Shown: positions 12,406 through 18,100 of the stretch, piece after piece
Numbering within the stretch: the stretch's first letter is position 1
Layout: every line of letters begins with the position of its first letter
Origin: Solirubrobacteraceae bacterium
Lineage (GTDB): Bacteria > Actinomycetota > Thermoleophilia > Solirubrobacterales > Solirubrobacteraceae
Direction of reading: 5' to 3'
Length of the DNA stretch: 38,532 nt
Assembly: GCA_036000295.1 (NCBI GenBank)
Contig: DASYFZ010000362.1
Coordinates: forward strand, 1 to 38,532
Translations under genes and position numbers: made by a program
The notes under the pieces: generated by a model
Database searches by the model: none
Told to the model about the DNA's origin: nothing
Seen by the model: the letters and a program-made list of their open reading frames with translations, nothing else

Positions 12406-13656
12406 TCAAGGCAGGAGACCGGCGAGGTCGTCGTGGCCGTTGGAGCGTGCCCATCCGAGCGCGTTGCCGCCGTGAAGTTTGTCTTGGATGAGCGGATCCG
12501 CTCCGAGCTCGAGCAGCGCCGCGACCGCCTCCCGCTGTCCTGATTGCGCCGCGAGGTGGATCGCGGTGACGCCTTCGCCGTGGCCGGGACCCCCGAACGT
12601 GCCGCGCTGATCCACATCTGCGCCGAGCCCTACGAGCGTCCGGATCGAGTCAACGCGGCCGTTTGCCGCCGCCCAGGTGAGCGCAGTCCCGCGGTACGGA
12701 TCGGCGTCGATGCGAGCGCCGAGCTCGACCAGCACCGGTAATGCCTGCACACGATCGGACTTGGCGGCCCAGACGAGCGCCTCGTCGAGCACTTCCTGGG
12801 GATCGTCTGAGGGCTGCCAGGCTGGGAAGCCGCCGTGAGGTCGATAGAAGCCGCGGTATGCGCCGGCCTGCGGCGTGCCGACGAGATCCCGGATCAGCTC
12901 GAGGTCGCCAAGCCCGGCGGCAACCCGCAGATTCGCCGGTTCGCGGCCGAGAAGCGGTGCGACTTCGCGATGGCCCCAGAACAGCGCCGCGATCAGCGGC
13001 GTGCCGCCTTCGCCGCGGGCAAACAGGTCGGTGCGCGCGCCGGCGTCGAGCATCAGCTCGGCAAGCTCGCGGTCGTTGCCGTAGCCGGCCTGGTGCAGCT
13101 TCGTCCACCCGTAGTCGTTGCCGCGGTTGGGGTCCGCGCCTCGCTCGAGCAGCAGCGACACGATCGCCGGATCTCCGGCCATCCCAAGGAGATCGTTGCC
13201 ATTTGTCCCGCGCTGCGCGACGAGATCGGGGAACCGGTCGAGGAGCCCGACCAGGGTGTCGCGGTCGTTGTCCTCGCTCGCCCGATAGGCGAGCACGAAC
13301 GGCGTCGGCGGTTCATCGCCGCTGCTCATCGCCTCGACGTGGCGGCGCAGCTCGCGCCAGCTCGAGAACCCGTGACGCGCCGCGAGGTCGCGTCGCGCGT
13401 CCGCGGCGCTCACTCCGTTCACCGTGGCGATTCCGTGGGCGCGCCCCTCGTAGTAGTCGAGGTCCGTGCGAAACGGCTGCTCGAGCCCGAGGCGCTCGAC
13501 GTACGCCTTCAGCTTCGGCCAGCTTTGGAAGCCGAGCTCGCGAGCGAGCTCGAACTGCACCTCGGCCAGCTTGACGTCCTGGCCCTCGGCACGCCGATCG
13601 CGCACGCGCTCCTTGGCCTGCTTGCGCAGCTGCTCAAGGCTGAGCTGAAAAGTCAC
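12406..13656 (-). CDS. Ankyrin-repeat protein with a duplicated N-terminal LAxxxGFxSW module
   Basis: Ankyrin repeats (LLERGADPN, GWTKLHQAG, GTPLIAA, GTALTWAA, GVTAIHLAA); N-terminal SLEQLRKQAK; SD GGAAGGGAG before the GTG. Confidence 0.92.
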   Translation of the reverse strand: MTFQLSLEQLRKQAKERVRDRRAEGQDVKLAEVQFELARELGFQSWPKLKAYVERLGLEQPFRTDLDYYEGRAHGIATVNGVSAADARRDLAARHGFSSWRELRRHVEAMSSGDEPPTPFVLAYRASEDNDRDTLVGLLDRFPDLVAQRGTNGNDLLGMAGDPAIVSLLLERGADPNRGNDYGWTKLHQAGYGNDRELAELMLDAGARTDLFARGEGGTPLIAALFWGHREVAPLLGREPANLRVAAGLGDLELIRDLVGTPQAGAYRGFYRPHGGFPAWQPSDDPQEVLDEALVWAAKSDRVQALPVLVELGARIDADPYRGTALTWAAANGRVDSIRTLVGLGADVDQRGTFGGPGHGEGVTAIHLAAQSGQREAVAALLELGADPLIQDKLHGGNALGWARSNGHDDLAGLLP

Positions 13657-13788
13657 TGTTGCTCCCTTCCGTCGCGCCGGGCGCCCGCCTGGTCCGGCTG
13701 GAGAGGAAGCTTGGTCAACGTGCTCGAGACGAGAGGGTGGGCTCGGCCCTTTCCGGCGGACTGGGTGCGGCCCTCGCCGCGCGCGGAA
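13657..13788 (-). ncRNA. Putative structured cis-regulatory leader RNA of the ankyrin gene (unnamed)
   Basis: Nested complementary segments GGCG/CGCC, CCGC/GCGG, GTCCG/CGGAC and GGAAAGG/CCTCTCC, plus a GGGC-CGA-GCCC hairpin. An alternative pairing of GCTTCCTCTCC with the SD GGAAGGGAGC is also possible. Confidence 0.6.
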
Positions 13789-13793
13789 GTCTA
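13788..13793 (-). promoter_or_regulatory. Putative housekeeping-sigma -10 element (TAGACT) for the leader-ankyrin transcript
   Basis: TANNNT hexamer at the 5' edge of the structured leader. Confidence 0.45.
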
Positions 13794-13818: not shown

Positions 13819-14022
13819 TCAGGCGCTTCGGACCGGCGGCCGGCCACGACGCGGGATCGCCTTGGCCTGCTTGGGCATCCGGCCCGCGTCGTCCAGGGCT
13901 CTCCGAAGGAGGATCTCAATCTGGGCATTGAGGCTGCGCAGCTCGTCGGCGGCCCACCGAGACAGCGCGTCGTGGACGGCGGGGTCGAGGCGCAGCGGGA
14001 CCTGCTTGCGCTCGCTGCTCAC
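13819..14022 (-). CDS. Ribbon-helix-helix (Arc-like) DNA-binding protein
   Basis: ERKQVPLRLDPAVHDALSRWAADELRSLNAQIEILLRRAL; GTGA overlap with the SPFH stop; a typical SPFH partner gene. Confidence 0.9.
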   Translation of the reverse strand: MSSERKQVPLRLDPAVHDALSRWAADELRSLNAQIEILLRRALDDAGRMPKQAKAIPRRGRPPVRSA

Positions 14023-14927
14023 GTATAGAGCGATCCGGTGTTGACGACGGGGGTTGGCGGCTGGTCGCCGCACAGCACCACCATCAGGTTGCTGACCATC
14101 GCCGCTTTGCGCTCCTCGTCGAGCTCGACGATTCCACGCTCATCGAGCCGGGACAGCGCCATGTCGACCATCCCCACGGCGCCGTCGACGATCCGGGAGC
14201 GGGCCGCCACCACGGCGTTGGCCTGCTGGCGGCGGAGCATCGCCTGTGCGATCTCCGACGCGTATGCGAGATGGCTGATCCGCACCTCGATGATCTGCAC
14301 CCCGGCGATCACGATCCGCTCAGCCATCTGCTGCGCGAGCTCCCCGGCGACGACGTCGGTCGATCCGCGCAACGACGTGCCCTCCCCGTCGGCCTCGTCG
14401 TACGGATGTGTGGTCGCGACGTGGCGCAGCGCCGACTCGGCCTGCACGTGGACAAAGTCCACGAAGTCGTCCACGGCGTAGACCGCCTGCGCGGTGTCCG
14501 CCACCTGCCAGACGACGATCGCGGCGATCTCCACCGGATTGCCCTCTGCATCGTTGACCTTCAGCCGATTGGTCTCGAAGTTGCGGACGCGGATGCTCAG
14601 GCTGCGACGATCGGCCAGCGGCACGGTCCACCACAGTCCCGCTCGGCGGATGGTCCCAACGTAGGTGCCGAAGAACCGCACGACCTTTGTCTGGCCGGGC
14701 TGCACGATCATCAGCGAGCTCGCCACGAGCACGCCGACGACGATCGGCGCAGCGAGCCAGCCCGTCCCCGCGAGCGCGAAGCAGGCGGCGATGCAGCCGG
14801 CGACGACGAGTACGCCGGCCCAGCCGGTGATCGCCCAGGCAGGCCGCTCGTGGATCTCGACACCGGTTCCGGCGTGACTGACTGGTGCCGCCGTTGGCTG
14901 CCGGTGGGGCCCGACGTGTGTACTCAT
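14019..14927 (-). CDS. SPFH/band 7 domain membrane protein
   Basis: Two N-terminal TM helices; [56 protein letters not shown]; GGAGG RBS before ATG 14927. Confidence 0.93.
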
Positions 14928-16077: not shown

Positions 16078-16083
16078 TAAGAT
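16078..16083 (+). promoter_or_regulatory. Putative -10 element (TAAGAT) for the fluoride riboswitch transcript
   Basis: TANNNT hexamer 6-7 nt upstream of the aptamer's first stem. Confidence 0.5.
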
Positions 16084-16088
16084 CGAAG

Positions 16089-16137
16089 CAGGCGATGAAG
16101 CCCGCCTGAAACCGCCGCCACGGCTGATGGCTTCTAC
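16089..16137 (+). ncRNA. Fluoride riboswitch (crcB motif)
   Basis: GGCGATGAAGCCCGCC...AAACCGCC...GCTGATGGCTTCTAC matches the consensus: P1 CAGGCG/CGCCTG, pseudoknot GAAGCC/GGCTTC, stem GCCG/CGGC. It lies directly upstream of crcB genes. Confidence 0.95.
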
Positions 16138-16263
16138 CGAACAGAACGGTGGAAGCAGATGCTCTTTGGAGCGCGTAGGACGGCGGTGATGGCCTATACC
16201 CTGCGGGCATCATCTCGCCGCAACACACTTTCGCGCCAAGTACGGGATCGGCCGGCCGCTAGC

Positions 16264-16662
16264 GTGCCGGGCCGAGACGTGCGCGAACTGGCCGCGATCT
16301 TCGCGGGCGGCACGATCGGAGCGCTGGCACGGGTCGGACTGCTCCAGGTCGGTCTCGCGAGCGCGCCCTCGTGGCCGTGGGCGACATTCGCGGTCAACAT
16401 CCTGGGGGCATTTCTGCTGGGTTATTTCACGACCCGTCTGCAGGAGCGCCTGCCGCTTTCCGCCTACCGACGACCCTTGCTCGGGACCGGCTTCTGCGGG
16501 GCGCTGACTACTTTCTCAACGGTTCAGGTGGAGATCCTCAAGATGCTCGACGTGCACCGCTATGCGCTCGCCGTCGGCTACGCGACAGCAAGCGCCGTCC
16601 TCGGATACGCCAGCGTCCAGCTCGCAACCGCGTTCGCGCGACGAGTCAGGACAGTTGCGTGA
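16264..16662 (+). CDS. crcB: Fluoride efflux channel FluC/CrcB, subunit 1 (alternative in-frame start ATG 16159)
   Basis: GGTIGALAR, WPWATFAVNILGAFLLG and GTGFCGALTTFST motifs. Confidence 0.93.
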   Translation: MPGRDVRELAAIFAGGTIGALARVGLLQVGLASAPSWPWATFAVNILGAFLLGYFTTRLQERLPLSAYRRPLLGTGFCGALTTFSTVQVEILKMLDVHRYALAVGYATASAVLGYASVQLATAFARRVRTVA

Positions 16663-17024
16663 GCCCGCTCGAATGGGTGGCCGTGGGCGCAATCGGGGGC
16701 GCCAGCGCGCTGGCGCGGTTCTTCGTGGACGGGATCGTCGCCAGTCGCGTGCCATCCGACTTCCCTGCCGGCACGCTGGCCGTCAATGCCTCGGGGGCGT
16801 TCCTGCTCGGCCTCTTGACCGGTCTGGCCCTGAACGGCGAAAGCCTGCTGCTGGCGGGTACCGCCTCGATCGGCTCTTACACGACGTTTTCGACGTGGAT
16901 GCTCGAGAGCCAGCGGCTGACCGAATCCGGTGACCAGGTCAACGCCGGCGCCAACCTGATCGTGAGCCTCGGCGCAGGTCTGGCTGCGGCGGCGCTGGGT
17001 CGTCTGATCGGATCGCATCTGTGA
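16659..17024 (+). CDS. crcB: Fluoride efflux channel FluC/CrcB, subunit 2
   Basis: GGASALARF, FPAGTLAVNASGAFLLG and GSYTTFSTW; GTGA overlaps at both ends. Confidence 0.92.
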   Translation: MSPLEWVAVGAIGGASALARFFVDGIVASRVPSDFPAGTLAVNASGAFLLGLLTGLALNGESLLLAGTASIGSYTTFSTWMLESQRLTESGDQVNAGANLIVSLGAGLAAAALGRLIGSHL

Positions 17025-18100
17025 ACGACGACTGCCTCAAGCTGACGACCTACTTCGGCGAGCGCCACCGCACCGAAGACCAATTCGTCGCCGACGCGTT
17101 GCTCGATCTATACGGCCGCGAGGCGGTCCAGACCAGCGTGATGCTTCGCGGTGCGGAGGGGTTCGGGCTCAAGCACCACCTGCGCACCGACCGCCTGCTG
17201 ACGCTGTCGGAGGACCTGCCGCTCGTGTCGGTCGCGGTGGACACGCGCACCCGGATCGAGACGCTGCTCGACGAGGTGATGGCGATCAAGCGTCATGGGC
17301 TGATCACGCTCGAGCGCGCACGGATGCTCACCGGTGAGATCCAACCGGTGTCAATGCCCGAGGAGCTCAACGAGGCCACCAAGCTGACGATCTACTTGGG
17401 GCGTCAGGAGCGGATCAACGGGACGCCCGCGTTCGTTGCGATCTCCGACCTTCTCCACCGGCGTCGCCTGGCGGGCGCAACCGTGCTGCTCGGAGTCGAC
17501 GGCACCGCCCACGGCGTCCGCGAGCGGGCAAGATTCTTCGGGCGCAACGCCGACGTGCCGATGATGATCATCACGGTTGGCGCGGGCGAGCAGATCGCGG
17601 AGGTGCTGCCCGAGCTGGGCACGCTGCTCAGCCGCCCGCTCGTCACCCTCGAACGCGCCACGGTGTGCAAGATCGACGGTCGACTTCTGGCAGAGCCGAC
17701 GCCACTGCCGTCGAAGGACGAGCACGGTATGGCGGTATGGCAGAAGCTGATGGTCTACACCTCGGAACAGGCGCGACACGGCAATCGGCCGCTGCACGTC
17801 GCACTGATCCGTGCGCTGCGCGAGAGCGGGGCGGCCGGCGCGACCTGCCTGCGCGGAATCTGGGGCTTTCACGGCGAACACGCACCACACGGCGACCGGC
17901 TCCTGCAGCTCCGACGTCACGTCCCGATGGTCACGATCATCGTCGACAGCCCGGAGGGCATCGCAAGGTCATTCCGGATCGTTGACGAGGTCACCGACCG
18001 GGCAGGGCTGGTAACGAGCGAAATGGTGCCCGCTCTGGCCGCCGTTACCAACGACGGTGCCGCGCGCGGCGGGCTGCGGCTGGCTCGCCACCGCTTCTGA
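17021..18100 (+). CDS. DUF190 (PII-like) protein with three tandem domains
   Basis: Three repeats starting LKLTTYFGE, TKLTIYLGR and QKLMVYTSE, each with an RG..GF-like loop; LSEDLP motif; a usual crcB neighbour. Confidence 0.9.
   Translation: MNDDCLKLTTYFGERHRTEDQFVADALLDLYGREAVQTSVMLRGAEGFGLKHHLRTDRLLTLSEDLPLVSVAVDTRTRIETLLDEVMAIKRHGLITLERARMLTGEIQPVSMPEELNEATKLTIYLGRQERINGTPAFVAISDLLHRRRLAGATVLLGVDGTAHGVRERARFFGRNADVPMMIITVGAGEQIAEVLPELGTLLSRPLVTLERATVCKIDGRLLAEPTPLPSKDEHGMAVWQKLMVYTSEQARHGNRPLHVALIRALRESGAAGATCLRGIWGFHGEHAPHGDRLLQLRRHVPMVTIIVDSPEGIARSFRIVDEVTDRAGLVTSEMVPALAAVTNDGAARGGLRLARHRF

Follow-up and report, generated by a model that had tools for sequence, protein, structure and literature searches.

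The window, by which is meant the whole stretch of 38,532 nucleotides that was analysed, contains on its minus strand a gene for a 416-residue-long protein and, directly upstream of it, a leader whose parts are listed in Table 1. Close homologues of the protein, which come from Solirubrobacteraceae, are named 'ankyrin repeat protein'. On the far side of the leader, an SPFH/band 7 gene overlaps a gene for a 67-residue-long ribbon-helix-helix protein (13819-14927, minus strand), and the pair ends 25 nucleotides before the -10 box. Co-transcription with this pair was considered as a trait of the family and rejected, because neither gene was detected at 12 orthologue loci (1.5-kb flanks). A fluoride riboswitch (RF01734, 52.6 bits) is located at 16082-16143 on the plus strand and represents an ordinary known system; the open reading frames behind it, at 16159-18100, are presumably two crcB-type genes and a DUF190-type gene.

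Table 1 Features of the leader and of the gene behind it in the window; pairings are predicted.
Feature	Positions	Strand	Description
Leader	13657..13793	-	Between the SPFH/ribbon-helix-helix gene pair and the 416-aa gene, which has its GTG start at 13656
-10 box TAGACT	13788..13793 (13793-88)	-	From the sequence; 7 nt upstream of P1
Transcription start	13781-13780	-	Predicted from the conserved -10 spacing
P1, 5′ hairpin	13767..13780	-	GCGG 13780-77 with CCGC 13770-67; loop CGAGGG
PK1, pseudoknot	13733..13775	-	P1 loop GAGGG 13775-71 with CCCUC 13737-33
PK2, pseudoknot	13683..13761	-	GUCCGC 13761-56 with GCGGGC 13688-83, the latter being a loop strand of the 3′ hairpin
Linker GGAAA	13750..13755	-	Conserved; extra C at 13755
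P3, hairpin GGGC-CGA-GCCC	13739..13749 (13749-39)	-	Covarying; followed by the conserved purine A13738
Variable spacer	13711..13732	-	No conserved sequence seen in the alignments
3′ hairpin	13661..13710	-	Anti-SD GCUUCCUCUCC 13710-00 with SD region GGAAGGGAGC 13670-61
Inner stem of the 3′ hairpin	13698-94 with 13680-76	-	GCCGG with CCGGC; the 13-nt loop bears the PK2 strand
416-aa gene	12406..13656	-	N-terminal domain and ankyrin repeats (residues about 160-393)
Basic three-helix N-terminal domain	13498..13647	-	Residues 4-53; profile match E 2e-20, the window domain being a row of this profile
Second, partial domain copy	13336..13419	-	Helices 2-3, residues 80-107; profile match E 0.002

The leader is predicted to adopt one fold that occludes the SD and is composed of a 5′ hairpin, two pseudoknots, a small hairpin, and a helix between an anti-SD tract and the SD. 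A sequence-only reading of this DNA had instead drawn a switch between two mutually exclusive folds. The motifs from which it was drawn are all present at the positions given, and every pair listed for either fold is legal: GGCG 13778-75, CCGC 13770-67, GUCCG 13761-57, CGGAC 13696-92, GCGG 13688-85, and CGCC 13683-80, as well as the GGGC-CGA-GCCC hairpin and TAGACT. PK2 of the window contains one U-G wobble, the family consensus being GUCCGC/GCGGAC, and the additional C at 13755 is limited to a local sub-clade (L001, L032, L033, and L035 among 19 aligned rows). A strict sigma-70 scan of the window lists no site at TAGACT, and no terminator-like site, of the kind that a transcription attenuator would contain, was found in this copy between 13600 and 14100. 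Within the leader, a short frame with its TTG start at 13718 and a stop overlapping the GTG was considered and rejected: it begins in the variable spacer, is devoid of an SD, and is not kept in relatives.

The window RNA has an MFE of -55.2, compared with a mean of -61.3 for shuffled sequences (z +1.37); its stability is equalled or surpassed by 184 of 200 shuffles. The pseudoknot-blind ensemble gives P1 a probability of 0.67 and the SD helix one of 0.05. Across the family, the median z in nested-fold models is -0.62, which is not unusual, and thermodynamic stability was discarded as evidence on account of these two values. When the window was scanned against Rfam 15 at the gathering threshold, only the fluoride riboswitch was detected, and the best local match at the leader has an E of 9.2. 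Searches with 20 short leader loci gave nothing near the gathering score, and 20 more loci, including those of the sister family described below, gave no matches; the leader is uncatalogued in Rfam, as the sequence-only reading had supposed. Because the single sequence is unremarkable and is not matched by Rfam, the case for a structured RNA rests on the homologues.

Among 245 distinct genes encoding the N-terminal domain, 223 have a leader with sufficient flanking sequence and a core that could be parsed, and these leaders were reduced to 169 representatives at less than 85% identity; eight of these were anchored by eye, and the parser requires complementarity of PK2. In a sequence-only alignment of 49 leaders, with PK2 fixed by the search pattern in 24 rows and the other rows picked for diversity, PK2 is 100% paired, and four of its six pairs have changed on both sides. 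The joint changes in PK2, counted on a protein-based tree with 168 tips, number 8, 7, 6, 2, 1, and 2, compared with 0-3 in control columns, and its variants include GUUCGC/GCGAAC, AUCCGC/GCGGAU, ACUCGC/GCGAGU, GUCGGC/GCCGAC, and ACCCAC/GUGGGU. P3 is 94.4% paired in the 49 aligned leaders, with all four pairs changed on both sides, and has 4, 6, 8, and 19 joint changes on the tree. A P1 stem of 3-9 base pairs, of many sequence types, was parsed by a pairing search in 169/169 representatives. PK1 was evaluated in 53 leaders out of 68 with uniform geometry, where 80% of its cells are paired compared with 59.9% in shuffles, and 64 cells compared with 24 have changed on both sides, a value reached by 0 of 500 shuffles. 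The alignment-free score of PK1 is 10.7 for cognate and 8.2 for non-cognate strands, the best of 2,000 permutations being 8.85 and the control flat, whereas the fixed-offset tree test of PK1 is saturated.

The duplex between the anti-SD and the SD of the same leader has an energy of -13.9 kcal/mol, compared with -9.6 kcal/mol for swapped pairs, and its median rank is 14 of 169. By contrast, the variable spacer, which served as a control region, gives -6.1 and -6.1 kcal/mol with a median rank of 89. An inner stem of at least five base pairs was parsed in 158 of the 169 representatives. The linker GGAAA is conserved among them at 98% (G), 96% (G), 72% (A), 76% (A), and 98% (A). A TANNNT motif is located 3-13 nucleotides 5′ of P1 in 142 of the 169, compared with 4 of 162 control windows; because of this conserved spacing of the -10 box, it is likely that the RNA constitutes the entire 5′ UTR. 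The distance from the end of PK2 to the start codon is 18-32 nucleotides in 105 of 113 loci among the pattern matches listed. Conservation with covariation upstream of homologues is present for PK1, PK2, P3, and the anti-SD:SD helix. This includes the elements of the former OFF fold (the anti-SD:SD helix and the inner GCCGG/CCGGC stem) and the small hairpin noticed in the sequence-only reading, and its mention of similar leaders before LEQL.KQAK genes is borne out among the homologues. Since the covarying helix occludes the SD, translational control is the likely role of the leader.

It is hardly credible that the leader is a conserved DNA element or an inherited sequence without a function as RNA. 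The poor folding of the single sequence relative to shuffles and the 79-96% identity of close orthologues would suit such an explanation; however, it does not account for repeated independent compensatory changes, the tolerance of G-U pairs, long-range pseudoknot pairs, and cognate pairing of anti-SD with SD. Two further pairings were tried and rejected. The consensus pair GG:CC flanking P3, which has no double-sided change and is equalled by 500 of 500 shuffles, is replaced by PK1; it is still contained in the covariance model R1. An extension of PK2 by the upstream CC, considered as a conserved ON state, has its first added pair in 110 of 169 leaders compared with 71.8 expected, and the next four pairs are not above expectation.

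The ON fold proposed from the single sequence was a long nested stem that joins GGCG to CGCC, CCGC to GCGG, GUCCG to CGGAC, and GGAAAGG to the pyrimidine tract. All of its pairs are legal, its listed helices amount to -23.2 kcal/mol (those of the OFF fold to -26.8 kcal/mol), and 78% of cells allow pairing between GGAAAGG and the pyrimidine tract. However, these last pairs change almost only one-sidedly, as composition alone would give, and pairing in the two outer helices reaches 48% and 57%. The ON fold as a whole is 64.7% paired compared with 63.5% in shuffles (a value attained by 18 of 500), with 8 doubly changed pairs compared with 8.1 (330 of 500), in a test in which the P1 columns are imperfectly aligned. 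The ensemble probability in the window is 0.00 and 0.01 for the outer helices and 0.24 for the inner two, and the nested part of the conserved fold reaches -37.6 kcal/mol compared with the -23.2 kcal/mol of the listed ON helices. Moreover, the strands of the ON fold covary with other partners, GGCG and CCGC in P1, GUCCGC with GCGGGC 13688-83 instead of CGGAC, and the loop of P1 with CCCUC 13737-33. No conserved ON structure was found among the homologues, and the data describe one SD-occluding fold. The switch exactly as drawn is already contradicted at the level of the family and is very improbable.

Within the loop of the 3′ hairpin, the PK2 strand is mostly preceded by 1-7 nucleotides and followed by 0-3 nucleotides. 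Such spacing is the geometry of a 3′-stacked kissing loop, and PK2 and the SD hairpin can therefore probably coexist. In nested-fold models, the SD is less than 50% paired to its own arm in 72 of 169 leaders, and in 39 of 169 PK2 is preferred while most of the SD arm stays open. These results suggest that the SD-closed state would need tertiary contacts or a binder.

The comparative evidence argues that the leader is a real, uncatalogued cis-regulatory RNA family present across many bacterial phyla. The family is about 125 nucleotides long. A strict pattern scan of GTDB genomes detected at least 120 loci, and about 2,600 GTDB stretches are estimated for this one strict pattern. The lineages among the matches listed, taken from record titles, include Acidobacteriota, Actinomycetota, Pseudomonadota, Gemmatimonadota, Verrucomicrobiota, planctomycete and myxococcal lineages, and others. 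Within the host genus, a near-complete leader with 79-96% identity occurs in 9 of 200 other genomes, where the similarity begins near the -10 box, and the 3′ part alone occurs in 2 of 200. The same core precedes distant paralogues and genes of Gemmatirosa, Vibrio, Azospirillum, and Pseudomonas from the plasmid collection. The covariance model R1 was built from 49 leaders; the window is a seed row and hence scores 68 bits by construction. Matches to the model occur in 56 of 101 host-genus genomes and, in the phylum of G228, in 13 of 61. Some genome tallies include the unpublished G030, G025, G066, G083, G155, and G184, and no other claim depends on them. The expression resource lists no holder of the leader RNA.

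The distribution of the RNA follows that of the N-terminal domain. The domain starts at most 93 nucleotides downstream of the RNA in 113 of the 120 pattern loci listed, whereas the control on the upstream side gave 0 of 120; the seven misses are three contig ends (two of them with the start of a domain), two broken remnants, one chance match, and one unresolved case. Among fetched matches of the covariance model, at least 6 of which were known beforehand, the domain is directly downstream in 50 of 51 and 0.5 kb away in the remaining one. In the reverse direction, 106 of 118 protein-retrieved loci with at least 150 nucleotides upstream have the leader, with 10 of the 106 credited by eye. The loci with a leader comprise 67 of 70 from metagenomes (a set in which one actinobacterial type is over-represented), 14 of 16 from Pseudomonadota, 7 of 9 from Acidobacteriota, 14 of 19 from the host genus, and 4 of 4 from plasmid records. 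The genome of the window itself, which is 81% complete, contains two RNA matches at E <0.001, each of which belongs to one of its two clear domain genes; in the second leader, PK2 shows the double compensatory change GCUCGC/GCGAGC. The element is restricted to genes of its putative binder, as is characteristic of an autogenous leader.

The sequence-only reading described the element as the leader of an ankyrin gene, which is correct for the window; however, the RNA tracks the N-terminal domain, not the ankyrin repeats. Among 67 scanned proteins (65 of the 113 listed domain loci and two plasmid proteins), the C-terminal part is ankyrin in 56, DUF1835 in four, and of no family in seven. An LRR part occurs in L327, and fusions of the domain to Clp-N occur among the proteins. 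The N-terminal domain is the only part common to all controlled genes, and the variation of the C-terminal parts, while RNA and domain stay, counts in favour of a pairing between domain and RNA. The downstream genes (ankyrin, DUF1835, LRR, VOC, Lon-N, and unannotated) point to no ligand or pathway, such as would be expected behind a riboswitch.

The domain is proposed to be an RNA-binding module. Its structure model contains three helices, with a pLDDT of 87.5 for the window domain, or four where a variable insert is present. Lysine or arginine occupies positions 10, 14, and 18, on one face of helix 1, in 92, 98, and 87% of sequences, and position 49 in 89%. The median net charge of the domain is +4, although the first 60 residues of the window protein carry only +2. 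The putative RNA binding is based on this basic helix face, its conservation, and the charge, since neither sequence nor fold searches gave a solved relative. Foldseek gave no match at E 0.001, the best VIA Z values were 3.9 and 5.0 (DUF1244), a PDB sequence search gave no match, and atlas matches were below 0.9 and unnamed. Assignment of the domain to a fold, including the helix-turn-helix, was abandoned because it has no support from Foldseek, VIA, or the PDB. Database searches found no functional annotation of the domain.

Conserved A, A, G, W, and L and a common three-helix pattern indicate homology between the domain and the N-terminal ~55 positions of Pfam PF20066 (Glyoxalase_8), a segment for which no assigned function was found. 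The relatives P0219, P0237, and P0240 pass the PF20066 cut-off of 23.7 bits, whereas the window protein, which is without the C-terminal part of that family, scores 15 bits over residues 6-54. Judged by these matches, the window protein has a segment homologous to PF20066 and is not a member of the family. Residues 7-54 and 72-113 also weakly match the N-terminus of NCBIfam PRK05973 (E 0.016), which is a possible further fusion family.

Genes of PF20066 are preceded by a sister leader. A search of 151 Pseudomonadota genomes located 15 PF20066 places, of which one C-terminal-only match and one near-duplicate were dropped. Eleven of the 13 loci parse with the same scaffold of P1/PK1 and PK2; of the other two, one fits by eye with five of six PK2 pairs, and one is a sub-threshold gene without the leader. 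The middle of the sister leader is rebuilt, with a hairpin followed by GGUGAA instead of GGAAA followed by a hairpin. The PK1 score is 14.5 compared with 10.6 for non-cognate strands (0 of 20,000 permutations as high), and the long hairpin over the SD region gives -28.9 compared with -19.2, the own pair being the best in 9 of 12. Of the sister leaders, model R1 detects only that of L364, with an E of 0.005. The C-terminal parts of the sister proteins include Glyoxalase_7 and the Lon substrate-binding domain. By comparison of the two families, a diverged domain accompanies a diverged RNA of the same scaffold.

The reading preferred here, to which a probability of roughly 55% is assigned, is that the N-terminal domain binds the leader of its own mRNA and represses its translation. 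The structured element lies in the 5′ UTR and covers the initiation region, as in autogenous leaders. Transcription would start ~7 nucleotides after the -10 box, at P1, according to the conserved spacing. P1, P3, PK1, PK2, the inner stem, and the anti-SD:SD helix would then form together; covariation supports the pairings, and the loop geometry suggests their simultaneity. Nested-fold models indicate that the SD helix of the protein-free RNA may open often enough for initiation. The N-terminal domain would bind the tertiary fold and keep the SD closed, which is suggested by the one-to-one co-occurrence, the conserved basic residues, and the sister pair. RNA and domain occur together before different C-terminal domains and may move as one cassette. 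It is conceivable, though speculative, that the cassette is a portable one-component regulator, in which the tag represses its own mRNA until the C-terminal part binds its target, freeing the RNA and causing self-induction upon titration. The C-terminal parts (ankyrin, LRR, VOC, Lon-N, and DUF1835) would in that event act as sensors of, for example, damaged proteins, drugs, or phage products, and diverged tag-RNA pairs would be orthogonal circuits in one cell.

The leader also has a structured conserved domain, invariant unpaired bases, and an expression platform, as riboswitches do. In an orphan riboswitch for a small molecule or an ion, the double pseudoknot would be the aptamer, and the ligand would lock PK2 and the SD helix and turn translation off. 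The compact size, the start at P1, the sequestration of the SD, and the presence in many phyla agree with this, and the preference of the nested model for PK2 with an open SD in 39 of 169 leaders implies that two states are energetically close. The invariant unpaired bases (GGAAA, CC, and A) would suit a ligand pocket equally well, and the co-occurrence would also arise where a gene family that acts through the shared domain is under the control of a ligand-sensing RNA. A riboswitch is nevertheless unlikely, because the controlled genes are united by a single domain, which is not enzymatic, and by no pathway, transporter, or class of enzyme. Furthermore, the middle of the sister RNA, which is the site of the invariant bases, was rebuilt along with the diverged domain, and no fetched copy precedes an unrelated intact gene, except for one chance match and one unresolved case. 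Of the 'ligand- or protein-responsive' translational switch of the sequence-only reading, the translational control stands as likely and its protein half is the better supported, whereas the alternation of two folds is not supported.

A repressive leader that is opened or closed by another factor or condition, such as a helicase, an RNase, ribosome stress, or temperature, with the domain binding another nucleic acid or a protein, would agree with the supported occlusion of the SD, with a domain that carries no functional annotation, and with the orthologues L002, L291, and L295, which have lost the leader and kept the domain. This is rather improbable, since it leaves unexplained why nearly all copies of the RNA precede one domain and why RNA and domain have diverged together while the RNA scaffold was kept.

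SAM-II, the preQ1 classes, and kissing-loop cobalamin riboswitches are compact pseudoknotted leaders that sequester the SD. The leader described here is likewise a compact pseudoknotted 5′ leader occluding the SD; however, it has no Rfam match, its SD is in a long helix of its own and not in a pseudoknot, and its gene context is not metabolic. According to the accessible part of PMC10931766, uS4 and uS15 repress their own mRNAs by binding to pseudoknots. The uS15/rpsO, uS4/alpha operon, and bL20 leaders (PMC10931766, in part) resemble the present one in having pseudoknots at the initiation region of a gene for a small basic protein. The likeness extends to the logic, because repression of its own translation is proposed here. 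By contrast, there is no sequence or Rfam relation, the gene is not one for a ribosomal protein, and the leader has two pseudoknots and a long anti-SD helix, with the putative binder fused to varied C-terminal domains. In the portion of PMC11109978 that is accessible, the 5′ UTR class 'Protein binding candidate' is defined by annotation as a nucleic-acid binder, which the domain studied here does not have.

No description of the leader motif was found in the titles and abstract openings of the literature. Ankyrin and DUF1835 are absent from the accessible main texts of PMC11109978, PMC8632094, PMC5737381, and PMC6429828, that of PMC11109978 also being without glyoxalase, and neither ankyrin nor DUF1835 occurs in the accessible main text of bioRxiv 10.64898/2026.10.21.760802. 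The latter reports, in that text, 20,149 supported clusters, of which cluster 630,527 precedes glyoxalase and other enzymes, and its clusters may include the leader motif unnamed. The supplements of PMC11109978, PMC5737381, and bioRxiv 10.64898/2026.10.21.760802 may bear on novelty. The RNA family to which the leader belongs is large and uncatalogued, and its predicted fold, with two pseudoknots, is unusual. The proposed pairing supplies a candidate function, RNA binding and self-repression, for an unannotated domain that starts many proteins of soil bacteria and the PF20066 family. If the control is autogenous, self-repression through pseudoknots extends beyond ribosomal proteins to a cassette that can be shuffled, and the family is a source of natural, possibly orthogonal, RNA-protein repressor pairs. 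If the leader is a riboswitch, it belongs to a common orphan class.

Individual loci depart from the one-to-one pattern in several ways. Twelve of the 118 genes are without a full leader, including L002, an 85%-identical orthologue with an intact domain. Upstream of 1443 on the minus strand, L002 (G029) has lost all of the leader but the SD, and its start position reads CTG; it is a natural control for regulation. An intact-looking leader with an SD is present at L073:1780-1930, where no domain gene was detected behind it. In L214, upstream of 1488, the leader is truncated, and GTCCGCGG jumps straight to the SD region. L054:1501-1570 contains a leader fragment with the first codons of the domain fused to another gene, and L007, L042, L226, and L261 have only the 3′ part of the leader. 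The truncated leaders suggest frequent rearrangement of the RNA-domain cassette. At L277:1430-1500, a shortened leader that retains GAAAGGGC..GCCCGCC and a small SD hairpin precedes a fusion of the domain to VOC, and is possibly a third variant of the RNA. Viral contigs gave five pattern matches, four by chance and one a true copy, in which a leader and domain gene (L062, an IMG/VR contig, 1477-1972) are at the end of a 9.5-kb contig of the viral collection, which may be host DNA flanking a provirus. The second leader in the genome of the window (G000:C472 5165-5301, plus strand; L307:1501-1979) is followed by a short open reading frame of about 115 residues, which encodes little more than the domain.
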